Assembly (NCBI GenBank): GCA_003483065.1
Contig: DMWY01000001.1
Span: forward strand, 8,606 to 72,605
DNA length: 64,000 bases
From: Candidatus Moraniibacteriota bacterium
GTDB taxonomy: Bacteria; Patescibacteriota; Minisyncoccia; Moranbacterales; UBA2206
Reading direction: 5' to 3'
Position numbers and translations under genes: made by a program. Shown here piece by piece: positions 18,953-57,642 of this stretch (position 1 is its first letter; the number at the start of each line of letters is the position of its first letter). A model generated the notes under the pieces. That model ran no database searches. It saw only the letters and a program-made list of their open reading frames with translations, and was not told the origin of the DNA.

Positions 18953-19891
18953 ATGTCAGAAAACAAAAAAATATCAGTGGTAGTGCCGTTGTATAACGAA
19001 GAGGGGAATGTCAAAAATTTGCATGCTAAGATTCTGAGTGCTTGTCAGAATCTTGGTCGAGAATTTGAAATTATTTTTATTGATGATGGATCGAAAGATA
19101 AGACAGTGGAAAACTGCCAAGGACTTTCGCCATTGAAGCTGATTGAATTTAGAAGAAATTTTGGCCAAACCGCTGCTTTTGATGCGGGGATAAAAAATGC
19201 CGAAGGAGATATTATTATCACGATGGATGGTGATTTACAAAATGATCCGGCAGATATTGGGTTGCTTTTAGAAGAAATGGAAAAAGGTTTTGATATTGTT
19301 TCCGGTTGGAGATTTAACAGAAAAGATAATTTTTCTAAAAAGTTCTTTTCACGGGGAGCTAATCTGCTTCGAAAGATTTTGATTCACGACAAAATACATG
19401 ACAGTGGCTGTTCTTTGAAAGCTTATCGAAAAGAGTGTTTTGCGGACGTGGATCTTTTTGGTGAAATGCATCGTTTTATCCCGGCACTTTTAGAATTGCA
19501 GGGGTATAAGGTGGGAGAAGTGAAAGTCTCGCATCATCCACGAGTCAGTGGAGTGACGAAATATAATTGGAAGAGGGGAATGAAAGGTTTTGTGGATATG
19601 GTTTCTATTTGGTTTTGGGGAAAATATTCCAACAGGCCGTTGCATCTTTTTGGCGGTTCAGGAATAATTTTGTCCTTGGCTGGTTTTGGAATCTTGACTT
19701 GGATGGCGATTGGAAAGATATTTTTTGCTATGTCACTTTCACAAAAAATTTGGCCACTGATGGGTGTGTTTTTTATCATGATTGGCATCCAACTTTTCAT
19801 TTTCGGACTTTTAGCTGATATTCTTGTTAAGAATTATTACAAAAGCCAAAATAGAATGAACTACTCGATTAAAGAGATAAAAGAATCATGA
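18953..19891 (+). CDS. GtrB/ArnC-like GT2 polyprenyl-phosphate glycosyltransferase with two C-terminal TM helices
   Basis: VVPLYNEEGNV, IFIDDGSKDKT, TMDGDLQNDP and a C-terminal hydrophobic pair are present. Confidence 0.8.
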   Translation: MSENKKISVVVPLYNEEGNVKNLHAKILSACQNLGREFEIIFIDDGSKDKTVENCQGLSPLKLIEFRRNFGQTAAFDAGIKNAEGDIIITMDGDLQNDPADIGLLLEEMEKGFDIVSGWRFNRKDNFSKKFFSRGANLLRKILIHDKIHDSGCSLKAYRKECFADVDLFGEMHRFIPALLELQGYKVGEVKVSHHPRVSGVTKYNWKRGMKGFVDMVSIWFWGKYSNRPLHLFGGSGIILSLAGFGILTWMAIGKIFFAMSLSQKIWPLMGVFFIMIGIQLFIFGLLADILVKNYYKSQNRMNYSIKEIKES

Positions 19892-19979
19892 AGCATGAAG
19901 CATATAACATGAAACATAAAATTAATTAAAAAATAATTCGTAATTCGTACATTTGTATGGATTCGTAATTCGTAAGGGA

Positions 19980-27835: not shown

Positions 27836-29629
27836 ATGACAAACCTATTAACCAAAAAATATGCCGTTGCGATTGTTATGCTAGCGATAGTCATCGGCGC
27901 TTTTACTTTCCGTTTTTACAATTTTTCTGATTGGTTATATTTCAAGATGGACCAATCGCGCGACGCGCAACTCATTAGTCATGCTATAAACGAAGGACCG
28001 ATGATGCTATCACTTTTGGGACCGAGAGCGGGCGCAACCGAAGTGGATAATGGCTTTTTGCGACTTGGTCCGGCCTATTATTATTTTCAATACATTTCTG
28101 GTTTTGTTTTCAATTCTACCGCTCCACAAGTCTTTGCCTATCCGGATTTGTTTTTTTCGATTTTGGGGATAATTTTGCTCTATTTTTTCTCGAGAATTTA
28201 TTTTTCCAAAAATATTTCACTTCTCATTTCGGCGATGTACGCTTTTTCTTTTATTGTGATTCAGTATTCTCGTTTTGCTTGGAATCCTAACTCGTTGCAA
28301 TTTTTTGCCCTGCTAACTTTTTTGGGACTTTTGAAATTTTTGAGCGAACAAAAATTAAAAAGAAAAATAGGCTGGCTAATTGTTTGGGCACTCGGGCTCT
28401 CTATTGGATCACAACTACATTTTTTTGGTTTCTTTGTGCTCACAGCTATTTCTGGGTGTCTCATTTTTTTTCACAGTCAATTTTGGCGATTACAAAAAAT
28501 CAAAGATATATTTCAGAAAAATATTTTGCAAAAAATAGCCGTTTATTCTTTGATTTTCATCTCTGTCTTCGCTTTGATTTATTCGCCTGTGATCATAAGC
28601 GACATAATGAGAAAGGGTGAAAACGCCGGAAATTTCATTCAAGCTTTGAGTTCTAAGGCGAAAAACAAAACTTTCGCAGAAAAAATATCCAAGAATTTTT
28701 CTGAGAATACTAAATATTATTGTCTCATCACCACTTCTTTTTGCGGAGAAGGGGAACCGTTTGATAGCGCAAAAAGTGCCTTGGCGTCAATTTTTTCGCT
28801 CGCATTGATTTTTTCCGGTTTGATTTTGATTGGGAAAGCCTTGCAAAAAGAAAAGAGTATTGAGAGGAGAAATTTTTTGGCGTTGCTGTTTTTATGGGTA
28901 GGCATGTTTTTCATTTTTACTTTTCCGGTTTCTTTTCAGCTTCGTCCAAGATTTTTCATTCTAGTTTTTGCTGTGCCATTTTTGCTTAGCGGAATAATAT
29001 TTGATTTTTTTCAAGAAAAATGGACAAAAAAAGCAATGTATTTTATTTTGGTATTTGCAACTATGATAATTGGATTAAATATATATGGAACACTGGCATG
29101 GTTTTCGGAGATGAATCAATCTCAAACTAAGGATGTGGAAATAAGTCGTACGTTGATTTTGAAAAACCAAGATGGTGTGACTTTAGGTGAACTGCAAAAA
29201 GCATCGGATTTTATCTATGAAAAAAGAAAAATAGGCAAAGACGTTTATTATTATGTAAAACCTGAGCATATAAATCCGATAAAATATATTTTAGCGCAAA
29301 AGAAAGACGCTAATTTTGTTTATGCGACTTTAAGTTTAAATGAAAATCCTAATGCTCAGTATTTTGCGATTATTCCTTCTGATGCTGATCCAAAAAAAGT
29401 TTTGGAAAAAAAATATGAAGTGCCGGTTGAGATATTATCTTCTCAAAATTGTGGCCAAATTTCAGTTTATGAGATAACTTTTCCCGAAAGAACTATTTCT
29501 AAGAATTTCAGATTTAACAAAAAATATTCCAAAACCGATCGACTTTTTTGGAAAGATGTTTTTGGAATAAGGAAAAGTTCAATTGAGGACGAAGATGAAT
29601 TAACTGATGATATAAATATGAATGAGTAA
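27836..29629 (+). CDS. GT-C-like membrane glycosyltransferase, 'DQSRD' paralog 1
   Basis: RFYNFSDWLYFKMDQSRDAQL...LGPAYYYF...PDLFFSIL...QYSRFAWNPNS is present. Confidence 0.5.
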   Translation: MTNLLTKKYAVAIVMLAIVIGAFTFRFYNFSDWLYFKMDQSRDAQLISHAINEGPMMLSLLGPRAGATEVDNGFLRLGPAYYYFQYISGFVFNSTAPQVFAYPDLFFSILGIILLYFFSRIYFSKNISLLISAMYAFSFIVIQYSRFAWNPNSLQFFALLTFLGLLKFLSEQKLKRKIGWLIVWALGLSIGSQLHFFGFFVLTAISGCLIFFHSQFWRLQKIKDIFQKNILQKIAVYSLIFISVFALIYSPVIISDIMRKGENAGNFIQALSSKAKNKTFAEKISKNFSENTKYYCLITTSFCGEGEPFDSAKSALASIFSLALIFSGLILIGKALQKEKSIERRNFLALLFLWVGMFFIFTFPVSFQLRPRFFILVFAVPFLLSGIIFDFFQEKWTKKAMYFILVFATMIIGLNIYGTLAWFSEMNQSQTKDVEISRTLILKNQDGVTLGELQKASDFIYEKRKIGKDVYYYVKPEHINPIKYILAQKKDANFVYATLSLNENPNAQYFAIIPSDADPKKVLEKKYEVPVEILSSQNCGQISVYEITFPERTISKNFRFNKKYSKTDRLFWKDVFGIRKSSIEDEDELTDDINMNE

Positions 29630-31397
29630 TATTTTGGAAAAAATAAAAAAATATCAAATTGCAATAATATTATCGCTAATTATTATTGTCGGTATATTTT
29701 TGCGCACCTATCATTTTTCGGATTGGTTGTTTTTTCAATCTGACCAATCAAGGGATTTGAATTTGGTAAGTCATGCAGTTGAAAATGGTCCTGGTTGGCT
29801 ACCGCTTTTAGGGCCAAAAGCCGGAGGAACATTTTTGCGCTTGGGTCCGATTTTCTATTATTTTCTATATCTTTCCGGAAAAATTTTTGGACTGAGCGAA
29901 CCTTGGAAAGCTGCTTTTCCGGATTTGTTTTTTTCTGTTTTGACCATTCCACTTTTCTATTTTTTCCTCAAAGAATTTTTTTCCAAAAATTGGACACTTA
30001 TAATCACGGCTTCATACGCAGTTTGTTTTTTTGCGGTTCAATATTCTCGCTTTGCTTGGAATCCCAATTCTCTGCCTTTTTTCAATCTGCTTTTCTTTTA
30101 TGCTTTATTGAAATTTTTTGATGCTTCGGATAGACGAAGAATGATTTGCTGGACAATAGTTACGGGAATTTCTTATGCCATTGCTAGTCAACTTCATTTT
30201 GTTTGTTTTTTTAGTTTTCCGATTGCCACCTTGGCAATTATTTTATTTCGAAAAATTATTCTTAAATATTCAGTCGGTCAATTTTTCAAATATGTCCCGA
30301 TTGTTATTGCCATTTTTATTTTATTTTATATTCCAATGATACTTAGCGATATGCAAGCCGACGGGAATAATGCGATTAATTTTTTGGTTTCTTTTGAAAG
30401 TAAGAGTTCGGATTCTGGGATAGCAGAGCTTGCAAAGACAAATATTTTTAATTTTTCCAAGTACTTTGCAATTATTTGGTCGGGCGTGGTTGATGCGGAT
30501 AAAAAAACATACAAATTATTTTCATACTTTATGCTTGCCGGATTGATTGGTGGAGGCTTGCTTTTTAGAAAAGAAACAGACGTAAGAAAAAAAATGTTTA
30601 TATTTGCAATTTTTGCGTGGCTTATTTCTTATTTCATTGTTTATTTCCCTCTAGGATCAAAGGTTCAGCCGAGACATTTTTTGCCGATTTTGCCGTTGCC
30701 ATTTATCTTTTGGGGATTTTTGATTTTATTTATAAATAAAATCAGCTGGAAATATAAATCTTTGATCATTGGGTCAATGTTGTTTTTGCCTATCGCGCTT
30801 AACGCGTATAGCGTCAAAACTTGGTTTGGCGAGCTTGGCGATTCGCAAACTAAAATTTCTCATCCGAGAAAATCAGCGCTTTTGAAATCAGTAGAGGGTG
30901 AAGATTGGTGGCATTTGAAAAAAACGGCTGAATATATAAAAAATGATTGCTATGGAGAAGATAAAAAAATATTCATTATTCCGCTTAAGAAAAGCTATCG
31001 CGATCTTATTAGTTATTCACTGGAAAGTATTGGAGAAAAAAGGGAATACAGTATAAAACTCGGATCGATGGAATATTATCCGGACAGTTGCTATTATTTT
31101 ATGTATTTTATGAAAAATTATTCTCCTGATTATTTTGATGGGCAAATAAGAAAAATAAGCGAAAAAAGTTTTGGTGATATTGGCGTTGTGCATTTTAAAA
31201 TAAATTCACAAGCGATAGCAGGGGGGGATAAAATTGAAAATCCTTTCAGAAAAGAAGACGGAGGGCAAGAAAGAAAAGATAGTAATATTGAAAGTGGCTC
31301 AGATGACAATAGCTCAATCGATGGAAGTGAGGATAATTCATGGTTGATTCCAAAAAGAAGAGAAAGAATTTTCTGGAAAGATTTATTTAATCAATAA
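29622..31397 (+). CDS. GT-C-like membrane glycosyltransferase, 'DQSRD' paralog 2, with acidic/Ser-rich C-terminal tail
   Basis: RTYHFSDWLFFQSDQSRDLNL...QYSRFAWNPNS is present. The tail reads GGQERKDSNIESGSDDNSSIDGSEDNS. The ORF overlaps paralog 1 by 8 nt. Confidence 0.5.
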   Translation: MSNILEKIKKYQIAIILSLIIIVGIFLRTYHFSDWLFFQSDQSRDLNLVSHAVENGPGWLPLLGPKAGGTFLRLGPIFYYFLYLSGKIFGLSEPWKAAFPDLFFSVLTIPLFYFFLKEFFSKNWTLIITASYAVCFFAVQYSRFAWNPNSLPFFNLLFFYALLKFFDASDRRRMICWTIVTGISYAIASQLHFVCFFSFPIATLAIILFRKIILKYSVGQFFKYVPIVIAIFILFYIPMILSDMQADGNNAINFLVSFESKSSDSGIAELAKTNIFNFSKYFAIIWSGVVDADKKTYKLFSYFMLAGLIGGGLLFRKETDVRKKMFIFAIFAWLISYFIVYFPLGSKVQPRHFLPILPLPFIFWGFLILFINKISWKYKSLIIGSMLFLPIALNAYSVKTWFGELGDSQTKISHPRKSALLKSVEGEDWWHLKKTAEYIKNDCYGEDKKIFIIPLKKSYRDLISYSLESIGEKREYSIKLGSMEYYPDSCYYFMYFMKNYSPDYFDGQIRKISEKSFGDIGVVHFKINSQAIAGGDKIENPFRKEDGGQERKDSNIESGSDDNSSIDGSEDNSWLIPKRRERIFWKDLFNQ

Positions 31398-31412
31398 AAT
31401 AATAGTTAAATT

Positions 31413-33038
31413 ATGAATTTTTTGAAAAAAATTGGCAGAAAAGAAAAAATAATAGTCGTTATTAGTTTTCTTGTTTTTTTGGTTATTGGAATATTTTTGC
31501 GAACATACCATTTCTCTGATTGGCTTAGATTTAATATGGATCAGTCGCGTGATGCAGAATTGATAGAAAACTTGAGTGAAAACAATGATTTGCCAAAATT
31601 AGGCCCGGGAGCGGGCGGAACAGAATTTCAATTGGGCCCGGCATTTTATTATTTTCAATTAATTTCAGCAAAAATATTTGGCGTGGAGCCGGAAAAATTA
31701 GCTTATCCGGACTTGTTTTTTTCAATTTTGTCGATCGGCCTGTTCTTTCTTTTGGTAAAAATTTATTTTGAAATTCCCATCGCATTGACTTTGACTTGGC
31801 TGTATTCAATTTCATATTTTGTGGTTAAATTTTCTCGTTTTGCTTGGAATCCAAACTCTACGCCATTTTTTGTGATGTTTTTTATCTATGCGCTTTATAA
31901 TTTGGCAATTTCACAAAAAAGGAAAATTGTTTGGGCAATTTTGACAGGAGTGTCTTTGGGAATTTGCATTCAATTACACACCTCGCTTTTGATAATTCTG
32001 CCGATACTTTCTTTTTTTGTAGCTATTATTTTTATCAGGAAAAAAATAGTTTCGACAACTATAATAGTAATTGTTATCGCAACTACTATTTTTGCTAATG
32101 TTCCACAAATTGTCACGGAAATTAGAAGTGGCGGATTTAATTCCAAACAATTTATATTGGGGATTACTAATAAAAATGAGCGAAATAATAGCTGGGCGAA
32201 TAATCTTGCCTTGAATTTTTCTTGTCATATCAAAACCAATAATCACATCCTTACTTCCATGGGAAATGAAAATGAGTGCGGGTATGAAAATGATTGGAAA
32301 ACATTCAAGAAGTTGGATGGCAAAAGAATGACTATTGGAGAAAAAATATTTTTTGTTGCATCAATTTTGCTATCATTGATATTTTCATTGGGAGGATATT
32401 TTCTTCTATTTAAAAAAACTATAAAAGAAAGCGATAAGAATAAAAAACTTTTCTTGGGTTTTATAGTGGGTTATATATTTTTGTCTTTTGTTTTCTACAT
32501 AACTTGGGCTACTGAATTGGCAGTGCGTTTTTTCCTGCCATTGTCATTTGTTCCGTTTATAATCCTAGGTTTTTGGTTGAATTTTTTTGAGAAAAAATTC
32601 AAAAAAGGCCTATGGATTGTGGTAATAATCATTGCTAGCATTTCGTTTTTTAATTTGCAAAAAATATCACATACGTACAGGGATTTGCAATATGGCGGGA
32701 AGGAGATTAATGGCGATTTTGATTATCTGACTTTAGGAGAGGGAAAATATGTGGTTGATTTTGTCAAAAACAATACTGATAAAAAAACAAACGTTATCGA
32801 TGCGCAAGCTGGTTATCTTTTTAAATCAATTCGCTCACTTCAATTTTTGGCGGGGAAAGAAAATATCGAAATAATTCAACTGAAAAAAGAGATTGAATTA
32901 AATTCTGGAGACAGACTGTTTTATTTGAAAAATGCTGAGAATAAATGCGAACTCTCTCAAGAGATAGCAAAAAAATATGACATTGAAAAATGTTCAATTT
33001 TTCGCCAATTTTCAATTTTTGTATTAAAAGTTAAATAA
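31413..33038 (+). CDS. GT-C-like membrane glycosyltransferase, 'DQSRD' paralog 3
   Basis: RTYHFSDWLRFNMDQSRDAEL...KFSRFAWNPNS is present. Confidence 0.5.
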   Translation: MNFLKKIGRKEKIIVVISFLVFLVIGIFLRTYHFSDWLRFNMDQSRDAELIENLSENNDLPKLGPGAGGTEFQLGPAFYYFQLISAKIFGVEPEKLAYPDLFFSILSIGLFFLLVKIYFEIPIALTLTWLYSISYFVVKFSRFAWNPNSTPFFVMFFIYALYNLAISQKRKIVWAILTGVSLGICIQLHTSLLIILPILSFFVAIIFIRKKIVSTTIIVIVIATTIFANVPQIVTEIRSGGFNSKQFILGITNKNERNNSWANNLALNFSCHIKTNNHILTSMGNENECGYENDWKTFKKLDGKRMTIGEKIFFVASILLSLIFSLGGYFLLFKKTIKESDKNKKLFLGFIVGYIFLSFVFYITWATELAVRFFLPLSFVPFIILGFWLNFFEKKFKKGLWIVVIIIASISFFNLQKISHTYRDLQYGGKEINGDFDYLTLGEGKYVVDFVKNNTDKKTNVIDAQAGYLFKSIRSLQFLAGKENIEIIQLKKEIELNSGDRLFYLKNAENKCELSQEIAKKYDIEKCSIFRQFSIFVLKVK

Positions 33039-33042
33039 TTTG

Positions 33043-34647
33043 TCAATTTCGTTCCAAGTAAATAAAAAATCTTCCATACGAATCATATGTAATTGGTGGT
33101 AGCGGTTCATTTAGTACTTTATTTTTTTTCTTTGAGCTAGTTAAATAAAATATCTGATCTGAAGATGAATTTTTTGTAAGACCAGTATCGTCTTTATTAA
33201 TGGAGATTAAGTTTATATCAGATTTGGCCACGAAAAATTTGATTGAGTTTGATGATTTTCTGAGATATTGTTTCTTTCCTTCGATATAAGCCACACCTCC
33301 TTTATTTGAATTGTTAATAATAAATTGAGAAATTACCTCTATTTCTTTTAGCGTAACATTTTCTATGGTGGCGATATCTTGACGAAGACCACCATTTTCA
33401 ATTTTTTTAAAATCAGCGAAATAATTCAAGGTGAAAAAAATATTGGTTGCGATAAGTATGAATATTGATAAGAATGGGATATAAGCATAGTTGCCAAGCA
33501 ATCTATCTGTTAAAAATTTTATCCATAAGCCAAGTAAAATAAAAGGCAAAAAAATCAGAGGGAGAAAGAATCTCATTGAAATTTCATATGCCAGAGGCAC
33601 AAAAAGTAAATAAGCAATTCCTGAATACAGAAAGATTAGTATCAAGAAAGATTTTCTGTTCCAGTCCTGCTCTTGCAAAAAATATTTAATTCCAATCACT
33701 AAACCACCCACAGCAAAGACTAATCCAGACAAAAAAATTATCCAATCAGTTTTTTTGCTGGTTAGTTTGATGGTACATCCATCGGATATCGCATAGCCTG
33801 AAAGAGTGACAACACTGCTTTGTACCCAACAGCTTGAATCTTGTAGGACATTTCTCATCAATTTGTTTTTTGAATCTTTTCTGGCATTTACACCAGAAAA
33901 GAATTCGGCGATATTTTTGCCACCTGTTTGATATTCATTAATAAATTGAGGAATGTTTAGAAATAATGATATTGTTAAAATTATAAAAAAATATTTAAAT
34001 AGGTTTATTTTTTTAATAAATAAAAATCCAAAGACAATTATCGTAGTTATCGGAAGAAGCAATAGCGATGTTGTGTGTAATTGAACTCCGACGCCAATGG
34101 CTATACCGGTGATTATCGCCCAAAATGCTCTGTTGGTATTTTTTTGAGAAATAATATTGTGGATTCCATAAAGACTTAGAATTGTCCAAAATGGCGTAGA
34201 GTTGGGATTCCAAGCGAAACGGGCATATTGAATAGCATAAAAAGACATAGTCAATAAGGTAGCCATTGATAATGATATCTTGATATTAAAATATTTGCGA
34301 AGAAAAAAGAAAAGAAGTGGTATGCACAATATTGATGAAACTAAATCCGGATAAGCCATTTTATCAGGAAAGTTTCCGAATATCTTAGCGGAAATTATTT
34401 GAAAATAATAAGGCATTGGTCCAAGTTTGAAAAAAGTGCCACCCGCTTTAGATCCCAATAACGGAAGCGGGCTTGTTCCATCAACTACACTACCGATCAA
34501 AATGGCATCACGACCCTGATCCATATTAAAGCGAAGCCAATCATGAAATTTATAGGTGCGAAAAAAAATACCTACTATTAATATAAGGCCAAAAATCGCA
34601 TAAATAAATCGCTTAGAATTTAAAATTGTTTTTATTTGTTGGAACAT
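33043..34647 (-). CDS. GT-C-like membrane glycosyltransferase, 'DQGRD' paralog 4 (convergent)
   Basis: RTYKFHDWLRFNMDQGRDAIL...QYARFAWNPNS is present. Confidence 0.5.
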   Translation of the reverse strand: MFQQIKTILNSKRFIYAIFGLILIVGIFFRTYKFHDWLRFNMDQGRDAILIGSVVDGTSPLPLLGSKAGGTFFKLGPMPYYFQIISAKIFGNFPDKMAYPDLVSSILCIPLLFFFLRKYFNIKISLSMATLLTMSFYAIQYARFAWNPNSTPFWTILSLYGIHNIISQKNTNRAFWAIITGIAIGVGVQLHTTSLLLLPITTIIVFGFLFIKKINLFKYFFIILTISLFLNIPQFINEYQTGGKNIAEFFSGVNARKDSKNKLMRNVLQDSSCWVQSSVVTLSGYAISDGCTIKLTSKKTDWIIFLSGLVFAVGGLVIGIKYFLQEQDWNRKSFLILIFLYSGIAYLLFVPLAYEISMRFFLPLIFLPFILLGLWIKFLTDRLLGNYAYIPFLSIFILIATNIFFTLNYFADFKKIENGGLRQDIATIENVTLKEIEVISQFIINNSNKGGVAYIEGKKQYLRKSSNSIKFFVAKSDINLISINKDDTGLTKNSSSDQIFYLTSSKKKNKVLNEPLPPITYDSYGRFFIYLERN

Positions 34648-41633: not shown

Positions 41634-41670
41634 ATTATTTCAAGTGTAATCATTTTAATCATTTGCTAAC

Positions 41671-41690
41671 CCGCCTACCGGCGAGGCAGG
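41671..41690. repeat. GC-rich hairpin element (reverse complement reads CCTGCCTCGCCGGTAGGCGG); supplies the last codons and stop of the GT4 gene
   Basis: It is near-identical to 44283-44303 and related to 57668-57687. Confidence 0.5.
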
Positions 41691-42811
41691 TCAGTGGTTC
41701 TGATTACTTTTTCCATCTCCTCCAAATATCTCTTCGAAATTTTTTCCCAGGTGAAATTTTCTTGTACATATTTTCCAGCCATTTCTCCGAAATTCTTGGC
41801 AAATTCCGGTCCAGCGGAAAAAATAGCGTTGATTTTTTTGATCCATTGTTCAGTGTTTTCACTTTCAACTAGAAAACCGTTCTTGCCATCCTTAATCGCG
41901 TCAGCCAAGCCTTGCATATTCGAAGCTATGATTACTCTTTCGCAAGCCGCAGCTTCAATTGCGTTTATGCCAAAACCTTCTGAGGAACTTTTATAATGAA
42001 TATTAGGAGAGACTACTAAATCAGCCGTGTTTAGCAAAACTCTCAAATCCTTTTGTGGAATGTTAGGGATAAGTTTTACTCTGTTTTCTAAATTGTTTTT
42101 TGTTATCTCTTTTTCACAATCGGAAAAATTGTCTGGATCGCCAGCGGTATTTCTATCAACACGACCTCCTACAGCGAATAGGATTATATTTTCTGGTAGG
42201 CGAGGCATTATATTTTTAATAAACCAAGCAGTGCCTTTATGCGGAACAAATCTGCCTAGACGCAAGATGACTTTTTTGTCTAAAGTATCTTTGCCCCAAA
42301 GAGCAGACAAGTCTTGTCGAGAAAATTCTTTTCTGAAATTTTCAATAAAAACTCCATTAGGAATAAAAACGCAATTTTCCTTAGGTACTCCAATTTTTAT
42401 AGCTTCTTCGACAGCAAAATTTCCCACCATAAAAAGTTTGTCCATTTTCTTTATCGAAGGAATATTTGTGAGGCTATAAATTTTTGGTAAAATTCCTTTC
42501 TTATGACAAAACGTTATATCGAGCGCATGGATAATTGAAAAAAACTTTTTTTTAGGATGAAAAAGTTTTAGGGAAAAAGCTAGGGGAGCTAAAACGCCAT
42601 TCCCTACGAGACAGGCGTCATAATTCATCATTAAAAAAAATGCGCGCAGGAAAGTTATTGGCACAAAAACCGGAAGCCACCATTTGCCACGACCATTGGC
42701 GATAATCTTAACTTGGGTGATTTTTGAAAGTCCTTGAGCTAAATTATAATTTTGACTTTCCACCCCACCAAGAATTGGAGGATAGGAGTGAGAGATGAAT
42801 AATATTTTCAT
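41675..42811 (-). CDS. Glycosyltransferase family 4
   Basis: GINAIEAAACERVIIASN is present. Confidence 0.7.
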   Translation of the reverse strand: MKILFISHSYPPILGGVESQNYNLAQGLSKITQVKIIANGRGKWWLPVFVPITFLRAFFLMMNYDACLVGNGVLAPLAFSLKLFHPKKKFFSIIHALDITFCHKKGILPKIYSLTNIPSIKKMDKLFMVGNFAVEEAIKIGVPKENCVFIPNGVFIENFRKEFSRQDLSALWGKDTLDKKVILRLGRFVPHKGTAWFIKNIMPRLPENIILFAVGGRVDRNTAGDPDNFSDCEKEITKNNLENRVKLIPNIPQKDLRVLLNTADLVVSPNIHYKSSSEGFGINAIEAAACERVIIASNMQGLADAIKDGKNGFLVESENTEQWIKKINAIFSAGPEFAKNFGEMAGKYVQENFTWEKISKRYLEEMEKVIRTTDLPRR

Positions 42812-44161: not shown

Positions 44162-45388
44162 ATGAGTATGAAAAAGAAAAAAATTGGAATCAATGCAAGT
44201 TATCTTCGAAAGCCTCACACTGGTATTGGGCAAGTGACAACCAACTTTTTAAAAATGTTGGTAAGAGACAAGATACAAGAAACCTGCCTCGCCGGCAGGC
44301 AGGCAAGATACAAGCAGGATGATTTGGAGTTTGTTTTGTATTTAGAAGAAGATATTCCAAAAGATTTTAAACTTCCTGATAATTTTAGCAAGAAAATATT
44401 CCTACCGGTTTATAAGCGTGATGATTTGATTCGAAAAATTTGGTGGGAAAAATTTCTTTTGCCGCGCCTCGTTAGAAAAGACGGTTGCGATGTTTTCATC
44501 AGTCTCTACCAAAGTCCGACTGTTTTGGATAAATCAATCCGTCACATTATGATAGTGCATGATATCATCCCAAAACTATTTTCGCAGTATTTGGATAATG
44601 CAAGAAAGAAATTATATTGGAAATTAATGGAATATGGCATAAAAATGGCGGACAAGATTATTGCTGTTTCCAAAAGGACAGAAAAAGATCTAATTGAACA
44701 CTTAAGTATAGGCGCAGACAAAATTACTACTGAATATATTGATGTGGATGATACATATAAGATAGAGGCGCAAAATTTTGCGTCTCTGCGAGAGCAAAAT
44801 ATTTTAAAGAAGTATAAAATAAATCCAGGATATATTTTGGCTGGTGGAGGATATGAAGTGCGCAAAAATGTTGAAGGAGCGGTGCGAGCATATAAATTAC
44901 TACTAGAAAGAAACAAAAAAGAAAATTTTTTGCCAAATTTTCCGCGCCTTGCGATATATGGAAAAGTTTTGCCGGAAAGTTTGAGTTTGGCGACGCCGAT
45001 AGAAAAAATATTGAGAGAATTAAACTTAACAAAACATGTGATTCTTTTGGGCGAAGTTCCGCAAAAAGATTTACCGGCTCTTTTTGAAAATGCTGTCATA
45101 TTTATTTATCCTTCTTTTTATGAAGGTTTCGGAATGCAAATTCTCGAAGCAATGAATGTTGGCACGCCTGCTATCACTTCAAAGGTTTCCTCATTGCCGG
45201 AAGTCGGTGGAGATAGTGTGTTATATTGTAATCCTGATGACATATCGGATATTGCGATGGTTTTGAAAAATGTTTTGACTAATTATGACTTGCGAGAACA
45301 ACTAAAAAACAGAGGTCAAGAACGAGCCAAGCAATTTTCGTGGGAAAAATTTAGTGAGAAGATTTTGAATATAATCGAAGAAATGTAA
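44162..45388 (+). CDS. Glycosyltransferase family 4
   Basis: EGFGMQILEAMNVGTPAITS is present. Confidence 0.75.
   Translation: MSMKKKKIGINASYLRKPHTGIGQVTTNFLKMLVRDKIQETCLAGRQARYKQDDLEFVLYLEEDIPKDFKLPDNFSKKIFLPVYKRDDLIRKIWWEKFLLPRLVRKDGCDVFISLYQSPTVLDKSIRHIMIVHDIIPKLFSQYLDNARKKLYWKLMEYGIKMADKIIAVSKRTEKDLIEHLSIGADKITTEYIDVDDTYKIEAQNFASLREQNILKKYKINPGYILAGGGYEVRKNVEGAVRAYKLLLERNKKENFLPNFPRLAIYGKVLPESLSLATPIEKILRELNLTKHVILLGEVPQKDLPALFENAVIFIYPSFYEGFGMQILEAMNVGTPAITSKVSSLPEVGGDSVLYCNPDDISDIAMVLKNVLTNYDLREQLKNRGQERAKQFSWEKFSEKILNIIEEM
44281..44303. repeat. GC-rich palindromic mini-insert AACCTGCCTCGCCGGCAGGCAGG inside the GT4 gene, flanked by an 11-bp direct repeat CAAGATACAAG (44269-44279 and 44304-44314)
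   Basis: Read directly from the sequence. It encodes the ETCLAGRQAR segment. Confidence 0.55.
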
Positions 45389-47032
45389 ATGAATTTATTT
45401 TTTGAAAAAATAATTAATAACCTCAACAAACCAAAGAGCTGGTTGATTTTGGTGAATGTGGCTTTAGTTTTATTTTTGATTATTTTTAATAATTTAGGGA
45501 TTATTCCTTTGCGAATAGGGGATTTTGTTTTCTTTGCAATTCTGACTTTGTTTTTGGCGCTATACCGTCCTGGGTGGGCGTTTTTGTTTTTCATTGGAAC
45601 GATTGCGCTAGAAAACATTAATCTGGCGCCGACCGAACTTGGAATTGCGATTAGGCCATACCAATTTATCGGCGCGCTTACAATTACGGCAATTATCATT
45701 CGCTTGTTATCAGGAAAACTGAATTTCAAGTTGATGAAACCAAAACGGTGTGACTGGTTGATTGTAATTATAGGTATTTCAAGTTTCCTAAGTATTGCCA
45801 ATGCAGAAAATAAAATAATTAGTCTGAAACTTTCTATAATCTTGGTGACTTTTGTGGCTTTATACTTTTTAGTGCGAAATTATATTCAAAATTTGGAAGA
45901 TTTGAAAAAAGTTATTCCATTTTTTCTAAGCTCTTCTTTGGTCGTTGTGATTTATGGAATCTGGCAAAATATTTGGTTCTTGCGGGGATTGAATGGTTTT
46001 GAGGTGATGCCTGGAAGGCCAAATGCCACATTTTCCGAGGCGGATTGGCTGGGAATTTATTTGATTTTAGTTATATCTGTTCTATATGGCTTAGTTTATA
46101 GCCGTCATTCTGAGCGAAGCGAAGCGGAGTCGAAGAATCTACTATTTAATAATACTAAAACTAAACAATTTGCAGATCCTTCGTATTCGCTCAGGATGAC
46201 GGGCTTATTTATATTTTTAACACTATCTTTTATATTATTAATTTTAACCGTAAGTAGAAGTGCATGGCTTGGTGCATTTGCCGTGACATTTATTTTTCTT
46301 TTCACTATTTTTACAAATTTAAAATTTTATCCAAAACATTGGCAATGGAAAAAAACAATTCAGATGAAGCTGATTATAGTTCCGGCGCTACTCGTTGCGA
46401 TTGGTGCCGTGTATATTTTTCATCTGACAAATTTCCAATTGTTTAATCGTGTTCAATCGACTGGTTCGGGAATGCAAAAAATAACCGTAAGTTGTGATGG
46501 GAATATAAACTTGCCGGAAAATATTGATAGTGTTTTAGAGCTAAAAAAATACAGTTGCCAGCATATTAATTTAGAAGAAATAAATCTTGAAAAATCTCAA
46601 GGAAAATATGTTACGGAAATTTATCGCAAAGATCCGAATGTGAGCATAAGAGCACAAATTTATCAAAAATCTTGGCAGGAAATAAAAAATCATTGGGTTT
46701 TGGGGATGGGTTGGGGGAGTATTGGGAAAATTCTAGGAGAGGATAGTCGAGGCACGAGTCTCAATTCTTCCAATATATTTTTGGAAATTTGGCTCGGTAG
46801 TGGAATTTTGGGTTTCGCGTCTTTTGTGATTATGCTATCGTATATACTAGTAAGTGCGATAAAGAAATATTATTTTGCTAAAAATAAAGAGGAAAGGATT
46901 TTTGGATTGTTTGTGATTATTTCTTGGTTTGCAATTATCATTCCCAACCTTTTTAATGCCGGAATATTCTTGGGATTTCTATGGCTCTGGCTTGCAATTT
47001 CTAACTTACGAATAGAGCGAAATTACGAATAA
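45389..47032 (+). CDS. O-antigen ligase / Wzy-like polymerase family membrane protein
   Basis: VSRSAWLGAFAV and NIFLEIWLGSGILGF resemble the Wzy_C blocks. There are ~12 TM helices. Confidence 0.55.
   Translation: MNLFFEKIINNLNKPKSWLILVNVALVLFLIIFNNLGIIPLRIGDFVFFAILTLFLALYRPGWAFLFFIGTIALENINLAPTELGIAIRPYQFIGALTITAIIIRLLSGKLNFKLMKPKRCDWLIVIIGISSFLSIANAENKIISLKLSIILVTFVALYFLVRNYIQNLEDLKKVIPFFLSSSLVVVIYGIWQNIWFLRGLNGFEVMPGRPNATFSEADWLGIYLILVISVLYGLVYSRHSERSEAESKNLLFNNTKTKQFADPSYSLRMTGLFIFLTLSFILLILTVSRSAWLGAFAVTFIFLFTIFTNLKFYPKHWQWKKTIQMKLIIVPALLVAIGAVYIFHLTNFQLFNRVQSTGSGMQKITVSCDGNINLPENIDSVLELKKYSCQHINLEEINLEKSQGKYVTEIYRKDPNVSIRAQIYQKSWQEIKNHWVLGMGWGSIGKILGEDSRGTSLNSSNIFLEIWLGSGILGFASFVIMLSYILVSAIKKYYFAKNKEERIFGLFVIISWFAIIIPNLFNAGIFLGFLWLWLAISNLRIERNYE
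46104..46200. mobile_element. ~97-bp palindromic mini-element with terminal inverted repeats GTCATTCTGAGCGAA / TTCGCTCAGGATGAC, inserted in-frame in the Wzy-like gene
   Basis: The TIR matches at 14 of 15 positions. It encodes SRHSERSEAESKNLL...SYSLRMTG. Related copies are at 54786-54862 and 56433-56476. Confidence 0.6.
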
Positions 47033-49594: not shown

Positions 49595-50440
49595 TTGTTT
49601 TATGTTTCATGTTTTATGTTTCATGATCCAATGGAATTATCCATCATCATTACTAATTATAAAAATCCGGAACTCTTGAAAGTTTGTATTGATTCGATTA
49701 GGGAAAATATCACATTGCATGATTATGAAATTATTGTGGCGGATAGTGAGACAGAAGAAAAAACCGAAATGATGATGAGAGAGGAATATCCCCAAATAGA
49801 ATTTATTCCATCGAAAAAAAACATTGGCTTTAGCGGAACTGTTAACGCTGGATATCAGAAAGCTAAAGGAGAATACATACTTATTCTCAATGGTGACACT
49901 ATAATAAAAAAAGATTCGATCGAAAAATTGTTAAGCTATATCAAAAATAATCCCAATGTTGGCATAGTCGGACCACGTCTTTTGGGTTTCAATGAAAAAC
50001 CACAAGATTCTTGTTTTCGCTTTTATACCCCGCTAACTATCGTGTATCGCCGGACATTTTTGGGTAAATTTGGTTTTGCTAAAAAACATTCAGATAATTT
50101 TCTTATGAAAGATTATGATCATAAGGAGATAAAAGAAGTTGATTGGATTCAGGGATCGGCGATGATGACAAAAAAAGAGATTATGGATAAGGTTGGTTTG
50201 ATGGATGAAAAATATAAGCTATATTTTGAAGATGTGGATTGGTGTCGAAGATTTTGGGAAAAAGGTTATAGCGTTGTTTATTATCCAGACTCCGAAATCT
50301 ATCATTATCATGGCAGAGGAAGCGCGGGCAGAAGCGTTATCCAGTCATTACTTTCTAACCGTTTAACTTGGTGGCACATAAAAAGTGCAGTGAGATATTT
50401 TTGGAAATATTGGGGTAAGCCATTACCAAAACATAACTAG
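49595..50440 (+). CDS. Glycosyltransferase family 2
   Basis: LSIIITNYKNPELL, DSETEE and NGDT are present. 49595 is a TTG; the ATG at 49631 (MELSIIIT) is the more plausible start. Confidence 0.75.
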   Translation: MFYVSCFMFHDPMELSIIITNYKNPELLKVCIDSIRENITLHDYEIIVADSETEEKTEMMMREEYPQIEFIPSKKNIGFSGTVNAGYQKAKGEYILILNGDTIIKKDSIEKLLSYIKNNPNVGIVGPRLLGFNEKPQDSCFRFYTPLTIVYRRTFLGKFGFAKKHSDNFLMKDYDHKEIKEVDWIQGSAMMTKKEIMDKVGLMDEKYKLYFEDVDWCRRFWEKGYSVVYYPDSEIYHYHGRGSAGRSVIQSLLSNRLTWWHIKSAVRYFWKYWGKPLPKHN

Positions 50441-54287: not shown

Positions 54288-54359
54288 ATAATTGAATTAC
54301 TAAATTGTTTATTATTACTTAAATAATCTTACTTTATTTGTGGTATAATGTCAACAGCT

Positions 54360-54779
54360 ATGGATAAAAACGTCATAAAAGCAAAAACTAAAGATTTTTG
54401 GCAAAAATATGAATATAAAATAATCCTGATTATAGGCTTTGTTTTAGTGGCTGTAATTTCTTTTGAAGGAGGAGTTTTGAAAAGCCAAAAAATGGCTCAA
54501 AATCCGCTTATTATTGAAAAGCCGGCCGATAACAACAATCAGGCTGTTTGCGGTGTCTCTCAAAGCCAAAATTTGCCCACTGAGACGAAAAAAGACCCAA
54601 ATGAGGTAAGTGCCCTGCCCCAAAATTGCGCTTTCGTAGGGTCAAAAAATTCCAATAAATATCATTTGTCGATTTGCCGTTATGCTAAGAATATAAGCCC
54701 GAAAAACCTAGTTTGCTTTTCTTCGAAAATTGAGGCAGAATCAAGAGGATACTTGCCGGATAAAAATTGTATAAAATAA
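54360..54779 (+). CDS. Membrane-anchored protein with C-terminal Ada-like Zn-binding domain
   Basis: KYHLSICRYAKNISPKNLVCFSSKIEAESRGYLPDKNC is comparable to the Ada N-terminal FCRPSCRAR...AGFRPCKRC. The ORF-track ATG at 54348 lies inside a TGnTATAAT box, so the ATG at 54360 is preferred. Confidence 0.4.
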   Translation: MDKNVIKAKTKDFWQKYEYKIILIIGFVLVAVISFEGGVLKSQKMAQNPLIIEKPADNNNQAVCGVSQSQNLPTETKKDPNEVSALPQNCAFVGSKNSNKYHLSICRYAKNISPKNLVCFSSKIEAESRGYLPDKNCIK

Positions 54780-54785
54780 ATATAT

Positions 54786-54862
54786 GTCATTGCGAGCGAA
54801 GCGAAGCAATCTCAGAATTAAGTTACGAGATCGCCGCAGTCGCTACGCTCCTTCGCAATAAC
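54786..54862. mobile_element. Second copy of the palindromic mini-element (GTCATTGCGAGCGAAGCGAAGC ... CCTTCGCAATAAC), intergenic
   Basis: The left terminus matches copy A at 20 of 22 positions. Confidence 0.55.
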
Positions 54863-54870
54863 AACCAAAT

Positions 54871-55572
54871 ATGAAAAATGATATCATTGTAATTTCTCTT
54901 GGAGGATCATTAATCGTTCCAAAAAGAATCGATTGGCAGTTTTTGAAAAAATTCAGAGAATTAATAATTTGCGAAATTAAGAAAGGAAAAAGATTTGCGA
55001 TCATCACGGGTGGAGGATATGCGGCGCGGGAATATGCGCAAGCAGCGAGCAAGGTGACAAAACTCACCAAAGATGATCAAGACTGGCTTGGAATTCATAC
55101 GACTAGACTCAACGCGCATCTTATTAAAACTATTTTTAGACAATATGCCAATCAACGAATCAACAAAAATCCGCGCACCAAAGAAGATTTAACGAGTCAC
55201 TTTGCTAATGGAGAGGGAATTATGGTGGCTGCCGGATGGAAACCAGGATGGTCAACGGACTATGTCGCCACAATTATCGCGGAAAGACTGGGCGCCAAAA
55301 AACTCATCAATCTTTCTAATATCAAATATGCTTGCGACAAAGATCCAAAAAAATATCCTGATGCAAGAATAATCAAAGAAATCAATTGGAAAAATTTTAG
55401 GCGTATTGTCGGCAACCGCTGGGACCCAGGACTTAATATGCCATTTGACCCAGTCGCTTCAAAACTGGCCCAAGAAAACAATCTCGAGGTTATCATTGCC
55501 GAGGGCAAAAATCTTAAGAATTTAAAAAACATTTTGGAGGAAAAGGAGTTTCAGGGGACGGTAATAAGATAG
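54871..55572 (+). CDS. Amino-acid-kinase-fold protein, archaeal-type UMP kinase-like
   Basis: IVISLGGSLI and AIITGGGYAAREYAQAAS (GGG..AR.Y) are present. The protein is 233 aa. Confidence 0.5.
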   Translation: MKNDIIVISLGGSLIVPKRIDWQFLKKFRELIICEIKKGKRFAIITGGGYAAREYAQAASKVTKLTKDDQDWLGIHTTRLNAHLIKTIFRQYANQRINKNPRTKEDLTSHFANGEGIMVAAGWKPGWSTDYVATIIAERLGAKKLINLSNIKYACDKDPKKYPDARIIKEINWKNFRRIVGNRWDPGLNMPFDPVASKLAQENNLEVIIAEGKNLKNLKNILEEKEFQGTVIR

Positions 55573-55972: not shown

Positions 55973-56422
55973 TTACCTAAAACTAACTTTTTTATACTTC
56001 AACAAAAAATAAATTAAAGAATAAAAAACCAAAGCGATGATTCCGGCAGTGATGAGGAAACCAACAATAAGGGGTAGAACTAATTCTAGAAAAATAATTT
56101 TGCTGAAAAAATATTCTAGTCCCAGATGATAGGTCGAGTTAAAATTATCAATCAATTCTTGCGAATTAGTTTTGAAAATAAAAGCTCCAATCCCAGCTGA
56201 GATTGGTAGAGTAACAACCGTCGCCCACATATTAAAAGCTAAGGCTCCGGCGGTAGCTGATAAGCGATTGAAGCGGAAAAGCGAAGCTAAAATTAGAGTA
56301 GCTAGGAGTCCTTCTCCCGGAATGATTCCTAAAAAAATTCCCAAAGATGCTCCTGCGGCAATTTTGTGCGGGGTGTCGTCGATAAGAAAGAATTTTTTGA
56401 TAAAGGTTTTTAGTTTTTTCAT
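55973..56422 (-). CDS. DUF2062-like small membrane protein
   Basis: KIAAGASLGIFLGIIPGEG...FNRLSATAGALAFN is present. The start is set at the internal Met, because the upstream 23 codons derive from repeat copy C. Confidence 0.45.
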   Translation of the reverse strand: MKKLKTFIKKFFLIDDTPHKIAAGASLGIFLGIIPGEGLLATLILASLFRFNRLSATAGALAFNMWATVVTLPISAGIGAFIFKTNSQELIDNFNSTYHLGLEYFFSKIIFLELVLPLIVGFLITAGIIALVFYSLIYFLLKYKKVSFR

Positions 56423-56432
56423 ATAACTAAGT

Positions 56433-56476
56433 AGATCCTTCGACTTCGTCCGAGTACGGACTTCGCTCAGGATGAC
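56433..56476. mobile_element. Partial (right-half) copy of the palindromic mini-element (...TTCGCTCAGGATGAC)
   Basis: It shares AGATCCTTCG...TTCGCTCAGGATGAC with copy A. Confidence 0.45.
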
Positions 56477-56487
56477 AACTGAGGTTG

Positions 56488-57642
56488 TCATTTTTTCTTT
56501 ACGCTTAAACTTTTGGTTTCTTTGTCGAGAACTTTGGCTTCTTCAATTTCCTTTTTGGCATCATACGGCAAAACGCCCAAAATATTTCGCAGTGCTATAC
56601 CATCTACTTTCAACACATCTTCCCAATGATCCAGCGGTTCCAAAACTTCACGCAATTTTTTCTCGTCGTATTTATAAGTCTTACGAAGTGACCTGGCAAT
56701 AACGCCTTGCGGACCAAAAACTCTTTCCACGCCTTCTTGATCCATATAGCCCAAAATATCTTCTTGTAATTTAGCCAAGCGATCCTTTGTCAGGGTAATA
56801 GCTGATTTTAGGTCGATATATTCTTCAATTGATTTATTTATTTCATCTGTGTCGATGTGACGCAATTCTTTGAATTTATGTTTCCACATCGGGCAAAGAT
56901 TTTGGTATCCGCACCAATCGCAAAGAGGGGATATTGTTGGTTCAAAATTGCCAGCCTCGATGACTTTTATAGTGTCCAAAAAAAGTTGTTCACTTTTTTT
57001 CAATTGTTCCAATGTCCGAGTGGCGGATAATTTCATGCCATGTTTCAAATAGTATAAACTTACTTTTATTTTGTCTAAGTTATTGATTTCTTTGGGATAT
57101 TGCGAAAGAAAAGCTTGCAGATAAACCGAAAGCTGAATGTCGTTGTCAACTTTTTCTTGATTGGGCATTTTCTTAGTAGTCTTATAATCGATAATCTCAA
57201 AACCATCTTCGGTTTTGTCGATACGGTCAATTATTCCGGAGATGATATGTCTTTCTTGGGCTTGCCCCGTGGTCGCCGTAGGTGACTTTGCGGGGCCAAT
57301 TTCAATTTGAAAGCGTGATTCTAAATTGATAATATTAAAATCCGCGGGATTATTTTTTTGGTAGTAATCTTGAATAATTTTGACGCCTTGGGAAAAGGCG
57401 GCGCGTTCTTCGGTTTCTCCGTCAAAAACTGCTGGGTTCCAAGCATTGGAAAAATGCTCCATGGCTTGATCCAAAGTGGGGGAGAGAATGCCTGGTGTGT
57501 GGATAAATTTCATTGTTTCATGAATTGTCGAGCCAAAAACCGCCTCCTTAGATTTAGGCACCTTAATGTGGTCAATATTTTGAAATTTATATTTCAGCGG
57601 ACAATTTTGATAGGCATCAAAGGCCGAGTATGATATGCGCAT
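56488..57642 (-). CDS. PD-(D/E)XK nuclease with Cas4/AddB-like Fe-S cysteines (1 N-terminal + 3 C-terminal)
   Basis: GIIDRIDK...EIIDYKT is the D/ExK motif, and QLSVY follows. C14 plus CDWCGYQNLC supply the cysteines. Confidence 0.6.
   Translation of the reverse strand: MRISYSAFDAYQNCPLKYKFQNIDHIKVPKSKEAVFGSTIHETMKFIHTPGILSPTLDQAMEHFSNAWNPAVFDGETEERAAFSQGVKIIQDYYQKNNPADFNIINLESRFQIEIGPAKSPTATTGQAQERHIISGIIDRIDKTEDGFEIIDYKTTKKMPNQEKVDNDIQLSVYLQAFLSQYPKEINNLDKIKVSLYYLKHGMKLSATRTLEQLKKSEQLFLDTIKVIEAGNFEPTISPLCDWCGYQNLCPMWKHKFKELRHIDTDEINKSIEEYIDLKSAITLTKDRLAKLQEDILGYMDQEGVERVFGPQGVIARSLRKTYKYDEKKLREVLEPLDHWEDVLKVDGIALRNILGVLPYDAKKEIEEAKVLDKETKSLSVKKK

Follow-up and report, generated by a model that had tools for sequence, protein, structure and literature searches.

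A 99-nucleotide (nt) palindromic element lies in frame in a Wzy-like membrane protein gene of a Candidatus Moraniibacteriota bacterium (contig DMWY01000001.1, positions 8,606 to 72,605; this whole stretch of 64,000 nt, with a G+C content of about 33%, is referred to as the window). We consider it fairly probable (about 0.6) that the insert is a tolerated, gene-less dimer of CGTC-tagged repetitive extragenic palindromic (REP) sequences, derived from a unit in which two such REPs bracket a small GIY-YIG nuclease gene, and mobilised by that nuclease. The insert looks like a gene-less derivative because every nuclease locus examined, 16 in all, is bracketed by CGTC-type REPs. A REP inserted in frame in a gene is already known; the association with the nuclease is the part worth pursuing. 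The observations concern the identity of the element, its in-frame position, the lack of a target duplication, base pairing within each arm, polymorphism at the site of a second copy, turnover in the loop of the host protein, and the positional association with the nuclease gene.

A palindromic element in frame in a Wzy-like gene

The host gene (positions 45389–47032 of the window, + strand) is intact and encodes a 547-residue membrane protein of the Wzy_C/O-antigen-ligase family (Pfam Wzy_C, E 2e-16). It is flanked by two GT4 glycosyltransferase genes, and its product matches, at 100% identity, a protein assigned to Candidatus Moranbacteria bacterium GW2011_GWF2_36_839. The element, hereafter copy 1, starts with GTCATTCTGAGCGAAGCGAAGC at 46104 and finishes with TTCGCTCAGGATGAC at 46200. 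Measured from tag to tag (CGTC...GACG, 46103–46201, + strand) it comprises 99 nt, or 33 codons in frame, encoding the peptide RHSERSEAESKNLLFNNTKTKQFADPSYSLRMT. A preliminary description of the window had placed a palindrome with terminal inverted repeats in this open reading frame (ORF), and both the sequence and the position are confirmed, with no stop codon in the frame. The size given there, 97 nt and about 32 residues, has to be corrected, as 97 is not a multiple of three. With its 33-codon insert, the ORF is full length relative to its orthologues.

The inverted repeat of copy 1 spans 17 nt at 94% complementarity (46102–46118 and 46186–46202). A 22-nt pattern of the terminus occurs at two sites in the window against 0.00 expected from 100 shuffles; a 16-nt pattern, allowing up to three mismatches, occurs at seven sites against 1.12 expected, and four of these seven are true termini. 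Folding, a check already proposed in the preliminary description, gave a structure far stronger than the shuffled controls for the whole element, both as RNA (-37.8 kcal/mol, z -5.6) and as DNA (-20 kcal/mol, z -4.1).

Copy 1 is arranged as two inverted REP-like arms, with both tags facing outward and a spacer between the tails. The left arm (46103–46142, + strand) contains the tag CGTC, the stem ATTCT...AGAAT, a 22-nt loop GAGCGAAGCGAAGCGGAGTCGA, and the tail CTAC. The AT-rich spacer is 29 nt long (46143–46171, + strand); the GIY-YIG gene occupies the equivalent position in the gene-carrying relatives L352 and L364. The right arm (46172–46201, - strand) contains the tag CGTC, the stem ATCCT...AGGAT, the loop GAGCGAATACGA, and the tail CTGC. 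Because the stem of the right arm differs from that of the left, copy 1 is a heterodimer. The sole mismatch between the arms (T versus C) is compensated within each of them, ATTCT pairing with AGAAT and ATCCT with AGGAT.

Each arm is thus a hairpin itself, in which the five bases after GTC pair with the five before the tail. The stem pairs seen are ATTGC/GCAAT, ATCCT/AGGAT, ATTCT/AGAAT, and ATCGC/GCGAT, and the arms in the window have five Watson-Crick pairs and loops of 12–22 nt. Among 137 arms collected from genomes, GTCAT is preceded by C in 69% and by T in 28%, and the complement of the 5-nt stem is present in 124. The tail of these 124 arms is CCA in 76 (61%) and CCC or CTC in the others; the tails in the window are CTA, CTG, and CTC. 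The tag is CGTC at both ends of copy 1 and TGTC in copies 2 and 3, described below. In a metagenome sample, the variable stem position covaries strongly (88 C-G, 29 T-A, 3 T-G, and no C-A pairs; Fisher p 9e-25), and the right arm shows the same covariation independently. One or two GCGAAGC motifs lie in the loop, whether GAGCGAAGCGAA or the 22-nt version; GCGNAGC is a 'mini-hairpin' DNA motif, called extraordinarily stable in PMC13037366. In one genome contig (L100, ~5945–6160), six left arms stand in tandem with a period of 34–37 nt and no spacer sequence, indicating that single arms can amplify in tandem.

Two further copies lie in the window, both of them intergenic. Copy 2 (54785–54862, + strand) has GCAAT-type arms and reads TGTC ATTGC GAGCGAAGCGAA GCAAT CTC, followed by a degenerate right arm that ends with GCAATAAC. 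It fills the 91-nt gap between an ORF of 143 residues (54348–54779) and a UMP-kinase-like gene (54871–55572). The site is polymorphic: the related locus L369, in which the kinase is 98% identical, is without the element, and L370 holds an unrelated palindrome there. Copy 3 (56431–56477, - strand) is a solo arm, TGTC ATCCT GAGCGAAGTCCGTACTCGGACGAAGTCGA AGGAT CTAC. The stop codon of a PD-(D/E)XK/Cas4-like nuclease gene (56488–57642, - strand) lies 12 nt upstream of it. Downstream, the annotated ORF of a DUF2062 gene extends through copy 3 to 56491, so that the arm encodes residues 1–23 of its 172. Pfam matches DUF2062 only from residue 26 of 172 onward, and the L370 orthologue is 149 residues long; the true start is therefore almost certainly the ATG at 56422, which leaves a probable gene at 55973–56422 (- strand). 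The intergenic second copy, the half copy next to the 3' end of the Cas4-like gene, and the spurious N-terminus of the DUF2062 ORF had all been recognised in the preliminary description.

Assignment to the CGTC-tagged REP superfamily

CGTC-tagged REPs, with the families CGTC-1 to CGTC-4, were described by Di Nocera, De Gregorio and Rocco (2013; BMC Genomics 14:522, PMC3733652). That paper defines them by a CGTC (or TGTC/CCTC) tag, stems of 8–9 bp that start with A-T, loops of 4–5 nt, and a CCA tail, mostly in inverted dimers. They are known there from five phyla and 'apparently lack a dedicated transposase'; loops of other lengths occur in CGTC-1 of Bradyrhizobium. The same source equates the Rickettsia repeats RPE-4 and RPE-6 with CGTC-4 and CGTC-1, respectively, and the Neisseria repeat dRS3 with CGTC-1.

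Judged by its sequence, the element is an atypical-arm variant of this superfamily, in the form of a non-autonomous inverted dimer. We file it so because the tag, the A-T start of the stem, the tail, and the dimers fit, and because canonical units are present in a related Moranbacteria genome, among other places at the site orthologous to copy 3. The stem starts with A-T in all three window copies (ATTCT...AGAAT, ATCCT...AGGAT, and ATTGC...GCAAT). Canonical forms, with a stem of 8–10 bp, a loop of 3–5 nt, and a CCA tail, occur in the related loci L370–L373 and L379–L381. The elements share with the CGTC REPs of PMC3733652 the C/TGTC tag, the A-T stem start, the short unpaired tail, the inverted dimers, the variable spacers, the mostly intergenic location downstream of ORFs with occasional in-frame intragenic copies, and the lack of a target-site duplication. 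They differ in that the host of the window belongs to the Candidate Phyla Radiation (CPR)/Patescibacteria, outside the five phyla of that paper, and in that a GIY-YIG nuclease gene is consistently found between the REPs, for which no dedicated transposase is given there.

The family is widespread. The 22-nt terminus matches at least 120 contigs of a one-genome-per-species set of bacterial genomes and at least 120 contigs of IMG/VR. Hosts among the matches listed include Bradyrhizobium, in which the GCAAT-type arm abounds, and many other alphaproteobacteria, as well as Desulfomonilaceae, Planctomycetota, Chloroflexota, Cyanobacteria, Legionellales, Coxiellaceae, Rickettsiales, Verrucomicrobia, Omnitrophota, and Bacteroidota. 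A 36-nt CT-type arm, taken from the left arm of copy 1 with Y/R positions, matches at least 120 metagenome contigs exactly, mostly of about 55% G+C. The preliminary description had named a lack of other copies in the genome as one finding that would speak against a repeat; copies are present in the window and in at least 120 genome contigs. The arms are conserved, and the spacers differ in nearly every copy. A partner terminus lies within about 220 nt in 80 of 120 sampled arm matches; the window has two dimers, copies 1 and 2, and one singleton, copy 3.

No target-site duplication was detected in 202 of 231 complete elements, and the remainder show 1–3 nt, as expected by chance. The flanks read YY before GTCAT and RR after ATGAC, and only 6 of the 231 elements have inverted flanks of 6 nt or more that would form a larger enclosing palindrome. 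In contigs of moderate G+C content, 5 of 62 elements are embedded in a long open frame, compared with 60% of control positions. The family is therefore basically extragenic, and the copy in the Wzy-like gene is a tolerated exception. Of the two roles offered in the preliminary description for in-frame insertion, tolerance agrees with these counts and exploitation does not; of its two labels, 'MITE- or REP-like', the second is supported by the tag, the stem start, the tail, and the dimer layout, and the first (MITE, for miniature inverted-repeat transposable element) is not, for want of a target-site duplication.

Rickettsia palindromic elements (RPEs), reportedly the subject of work by Ogata et al. 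in 2000 and 2002, resemble copy 1 in their in-frame insertion in a protein gene without disruption, here of 33 codons with no stop. They are small in-frame palindromic repeats that add 20 to 30 or more residues at structure-compatible sites, according to PMC10969869 and PMC3733652. The host phylum of RPE-4 and RPE-6 is different, and their kinship with the element rests on the equation made in PMC3733652. A further contrast is that one of the three window copies is intragenic; what stands out here is the repeated occupation of one loop across orthologues. Arms in the window also differ from Neisseria dRS3, compared by description, in the stem and in the long loop. Locus L370 carries units of the form TGTC ATTCCCGC GAAT GCGGGAAT CTA, which presumably fit the dRS3 pattern ATTCCC-N8-GGGAAT.

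REPIN-RAYT systems, reportedly treated by Bertels and Rainey in 2011 and Nunvar et al. in 2010, are similar in architecture: two inverted REP hairpins and a spacer form one long non-autonomous hairpin without a target-site duplication, and a single small REP-flanked gene (the 'REPtron' arrangement) encodes the presumed mobilising enzyme. Their tag is GTAG, in place of CGTC/TGTC, and their enzyme is a Y1 (HUH) transposase, in place of a GIY-YIG protein; both differences rule out a GTAG/RAYT REPIN. REPIN families are also lineage-specific, whereas the arm sequence is near-identical across phyla here. A hammerhead or other ribozyme, suggested by GUC, CUGA, and GAA strings, was rejected, with no Rfam ribozyme match at E values up to 10. 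At the gathering score Rfam gave no match in the window and, in 38 related loci, only tRNA genes elsewhere in the loci; a search by E value gave only far sub-threshold matches to miRNA-like hairpins. We take attC sites, IS200/IS605 ends, dif, and other known site types not to fit the termini on inspection, and set them aside. Literature searches by literal sequence gave no match for the full termini and matches to unrelated papers only for the 13–14-nt cores. No matching sequences were found in the supplements of PMC3733652.

Repeated occupation of one loop in Wzy orthologues

In the AlphaFold model, which is based on 28 orthologues, residues 244–263 have a predicted confidence (pLDDT) below 50 and lie between the helices 218–249 and 264–287, in agreement with the earlier placement of the insert between transmembrane segments. 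The loop is predicted to face the cytoplasm, when helices are counted back in the model from the large Wzy_C loop. In the orthologue alignment, this region is a hypervariable segment between the conserved motifs '...LIY' and 'LTVSRSAWLG'. The GT4-Wzy-GT4 gene order is kept in orthologous loci.

The DNA of nine orthologous loops, that of the window and of eight further loci, was compared. L121 holds the same element as copy 1. L122 and L126 hold GCAAT-type elements, and L125 a CT-type element, all with intact GTCAT...ATGAC termini. Unrelated perfect palindromes are found in L123 and L128, and L124 and L127 have only a short AT-rich stretch. The elements in these loops use two reading frames and start 4, 6, 7, or 9 nt past a conserved Tyr codon. 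At the protein level, peptides diagnostic of CGTC-type termini (HSERS...LRMT and VIA[RS]E...RND, representing two arm types) are present in 29 of 120 Wzy orthologues, and an AT-rich repeat peptide (ISNFQFSIF...) in at least 51 of the 120. A diverged ancestral version of the 33-residue segment, which a comparison of orthologues could have revealed, was not found among them; the loop contents differ.

On a neighbour-joining tree of the Wzy orthologues made without the loop, the classes of occupant are interleaved, and the five nearest relatives of the window protein carry four different occupants. These patterns indicate that the occupants of a permissive loop have been gained, lost, and replaced repeatedly. 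In related Moranbacteria, this hot spot in the Wzy protein has been filled many times by such elements and by other small palindromes.

The commonest occupant is an A+T-rich family encoding ISNFQFSIFNQF.../NYELRI-like peptides (P0006, P0008, P0009, and about 50 more). It seems to form C-terminal tails too, as in the window protein itself (47005–47029, LRIERNYE), and the gene-carrying element of L352 is embedded in similar A+T-rich repeats. Such repeats could be preferred landing sites. Other orthologues have additional short repeat-like inserts without a counterpart in the window protein: VETQNFASLRL after the third or fourth helix (alignment columns ~160–170, window residue ~140) and NL(S/P)A(D/G)EAG before WQWK (columns ~408–416, window residue ~310). 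Several loops of the protein therefore collect small palindromes.

The Wzy-like gene is strongly mosaic in comparison with L121, L122, L123, and L128, indicating frequent recombination in the glycan locus. The 270 nt around the element are 91–97% identical between the window and L121, versus 79% for the whole gene. Identity to L123 is 100% over the first 180 nt and 36% in the 90-nt segment that holds the element, and identity to L128 reaches 94–96% in several 90-nt segments between gene nt 900 and 1260.

A GIY-YIG nuclease gene bracketed by CGTC-type REPs

A standalone GIY-YIG gene of about 95 residues is bracketed by CGTC-type REPs in all of the loci examined (L015, L042, L352, L364, L370, and L371–L381). 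The flanked gene matches Pfam GIY-YIG (PF01541, E 6e-17), and the nuclease profile matches the UPF0213 structures 1zg2 (E 1.2e-5) and 1ywl, which belong to prokaryotic Slx1-like standalone GIY-YIG proteins (Dunin-Horkawicz et al., 2006; PMC1564403). The nuclease family is very large, with at least 8000 candidates at E <1e-10.

In 371 loci (2.69 Mb), five GIY-YIG ORFs were detected, and all five are bracketed by arm termini 27–62 nt away; their hosts include Planctomycetota, Omnitrophota, and Moranbacteria contigs, and the proteins are 53–63% identical. In a sample chosen by protein only, seven of seven IMG/VR loci are flanked by CGTC-type REPs, which are canonical in G+C-rich contigs, of the long-loop form in A+T-rich ones, and degenerate in two. 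A tblastn search against plasmids matched 33 records, in Rhizobium, Sphingobium, Shinella, Sinorhizobium, Neisseria (two records), Novosphingobium, and Azospirillum. Novosphingobium, Azospirillum, Sinorhizobium, and Neisseria are also named as hosts of CGTC REPs in PMC3733652. The gene is bracketed in all four plasmid or chromid loci inspected from cultured alphaproteobacteria; in Azospirillum lipoferum it lies between sufB and sufC. Within one 50-kb interval for each species, three of three canonical CGTC REPs in A. lipoferum and five of six in Sinorhizobium meliloti lie no more than about 300 nt from the gene, so that a high repeat density does not explain the association. Database homologues with longer N- and C-termini carry arm-encoded peptides there (CHPERSEAESKDL, VILSEAKDL, VILNLFQD, and LLDAETSSA).

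Copy 3 of the window is probably the remnant of an element carrying this gene. Its junction, between AACCTCAGT and TGTCATCCTGA, is the one at which L370 has a REP-flanked GIY-YIG gene: in L370, a gene of 102 residues (4557–4865, orthologous to window positions ~56423–56487) is located between the PD-(D/E)XK and DUF2062 genes, and its flanking units, TGTC-ATCCTGAA-CTTGT-TTCAGGAT-CCC, start at that junction. By the order of locus tags, RIFOXYA12_FULL_35_19 also has a GIY-YIG gene at the orthologous site. In L352, the gene-carrying element has a left arm almost identical to copy 3 and inner boundaries that match those of copy 1. In the Planctomycetota contig L015, the gene downstream of the GIY-YIG element resembles pheT (MNVSYNWLKELVEFDL...), and a stretch of 63 nt or more from its 5' end is repeated on the opposite side of the element.

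Free-standing GIY-YIG homing endonuclease genes (phage Seg and I-TevI relatives) are comparable in being small selfish GIY-YIG genes between conserved genes. The nuclease described here is of the Slx1-like/UPF0213 kind, without a DNA-binding extension (NUMOD or similar), and, unlike those genes, it is bracketed by hairpin repeats that have many gene-less copies alongside. No report linking GIY-YIG genes with REPs was found in the open-access literature, which is not proof of novelty.

Origin of the insert and alternative explanations

In the reading that we favour, the parent unit would be about 0.4–0.5 kb long and contain, in order, tag-REP-tail, the gene for the ~95-residue Slx1-like/UPF0213 GIY-YIG nuclease, and tail-REP-tag; its architecture suggests that gene-less dimers derive from it. 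The nuclease would recognise the REP hairpin or an extruded cruciform and, by analogy with the structure-specific Slx1, may cut it at or next to the tag. Repair or re-ligation would then copy or move the unit without a target-site duplication, and gene-less dimers could be moved in trans. The dimer of copy 1 landed in the poorly constrained loop between two transmembrane helices of the Wzy-like protein, which merely gains a hydrophilic loop; the insert survives there because its 33 codons from tag to tag contain no stop in the frame used. Copy 3 would be what was left after deletion of a gene-carrying unit.

We extend this tentatively, at somewhat less than even odds, to the superfamily as a whole. 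CGTC REPs, including Rickettsia RPE-4 and RPE-6, Neisseria dRS3, and the abundant GTCATTGCGAGCGAAGCGAAGCAATC repeats of soil bacteria and CPR, may be the terminal hairpins and gene-less derivatives of a pan-bacterial minimal mobile element, whose only gene would be that for the ~95-residue Slx1-like (UPF0213) GIY-YIG nuclease acting on DNA structure.

Several points weigh against our reading. The link between nuclease and REPs is positional only, and no GIY-YIG gene is present within the 64-kb window. The tags do not always have the same orientation towards the gene: L371 and L379 have tags that point at it, or have it placed between two complete dimers. The window arms, with a 5-bp stem and a 12- or 22-nt loop holding GCGAAGC, do not have the stem and loop sizes given in PMC3733652 for CGTC-1 to CGTC-4. 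Single arms fold no better than shuffles under nearest-neighbour DNA parameters, so the support for the arm hairpin comes from covariation and not from energy. Finally, no close relative with a clean empty allele at the Wzy loop was found among the orthologues, the shortest loops of which also look repeat-derived; the exact insertion junction is therefore undefined.

The main rival holds that the REPs are kept or spread by other means and that the GIY-YIG gene is a secondary invader, a separate homing-endonuclease gene landing in dimer spacers; the Wzy insert would then be a tolerated REP dimer unrelated to the nuclease. The other means could be an enzyme of another kind, replication slippage, gene conversion, or selection by the host for hairpins that act as terminators or stabilise mRNA. 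Secondary invasion would produce the same arm-gene-arm architecture, which also counts against our reading; the irregular orientation in L371 and L379 fits it, as does the fact that only about 1–2% of arm-selected loci carry the gene. A role at the RNA level would agree with the location of both intergenic window copies just after a stop codon and between co-directional genes, as reported for REPs in PMC3733652. However, the two 50-kb intervals contain almost no canonical REPs away from the gene, the opposite of what random landing among abundant, already present targets would give, and the gene is bracketed in every case although the REP stems vary by host. The stop codon of the nuclease gene and the last residues of its product (LLDAETSSA) often come from the right arm, suggesting a long co-evolution. 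We regard this rival as rather unlikely.

Recruitment of the hairpin in the Wzy loop for a function, such as translational pausing between transmembrane segments, internal attenuation, or diversification of the loop, appears quite improbable. Most of the 120 orthologues do have a palindromic or repeat-derived stretch in exactly the same loop, the RNA hairpin of copy 1 is strong, and the 270 nt around it are much closer to L121 than the gene as a whole. The occupants are, however, unrelated in sequence, length (the loop region varies from 52 to 113 residues), and stability, and some loops are short and unstructured (P0029 and P0100). The gene is mosaic elsewhere too, and a permissive loop that accumulates insertions is the simpler explanation.

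A classical MITE, that is, a deletion derivative of an insertion sequence with a DDE transposase, is very improbable: it would account for the terminal inverted repeats, the small size, and the multiple copies, and is contradicted by the general lack of a target-site duplication, by the covarying hairpin in each arm, by the GIY-YIG nuclease being the only gene found between such arms, and by PMC3733652, which associates no transposase with CGTC REPs. That the 33 residues are ancestral Wzy coding sequence with a chance resemblance to repeats is ruled out for practical purposes, as its only support is the open reading frame, the 22–36-nt arms recur in intergenic DNA of the window and on hundreds of unrelated contigs, and orthologues at 70–80% identity hold different loop sequences.

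Other palindromes and repeats in the window

The GT4 gene upstream of the Wzy-like gene (44162–45388) contains, in frame, the G+C-rich palindrome CCTGCCTCGCCGGCAGGCAGG (44276–44316), which encodes CLAGRQA. An 11-nt direct repeat, CAAGATACAAG, flanks this palindrome, which may be another small inserted element, here with a duplicated target. A related palindrome, CCCGCCTACCGGCGAGGCAGG (41663–41704), is found at the 3' end of a glycosyltransferase ORF (41675–42811, - strand) and appears to supply its C-terminal residues. The G+C-rich palindrome GCCCCG...CGGGGC at 57253–57300, in frame in the PD-(D/E)XK/Cas4-like gene (peptide GPAKSPTATTGQAQ), may be a further in-frame repeat insertion.

Two 33-nt sequences 30 kb apart (19889–19921 and 49598–49630; TGAAGCATGAAGCATATAACATGAAACATAAAA) form an inverted repeat pair with 88% complementarity. 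Three paralogous genes arranged in tandem at intervals of about 1780 nt (27894–33000) and an inverted fourth copy (~34100–34600) make up the repeat families D1, D3–D5, and I1–I3; the tandem paralogues are probably duplicated membrane proteins.

Implications

In-frame palindromic repeats in genes were long held to be peculiar to Rickettsia. Members of the same superfamily insert in frame in a CPR bacterium whose genome is reduced, and the many re-occupations of a single loop in a cell-surface glycan enzyme provide a natural record of repeat turnover and of the tolerance of a membrane protein to insertions. CGTC-type repeats also create many spurious ORF extensions and 'hypothetical proteins' in metagenome annotation, of which the N-terminus of the DUF2062 ORF is an example.

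The Slx1-like GIY-YIG nuclease, bracketed by REPs in several phyla, is a concrete candidate for the mobiliser of CGTC REPs. If the tentative extension to the whole superfamily is true, these repeats would belong to a transposon-like system with a GIY-YIG nuclease as its driving enzyme and as the equivalent of RAYT in the second REP superfamily, and this would account for the entry of in-frame palindromes into genes such as Wzy.

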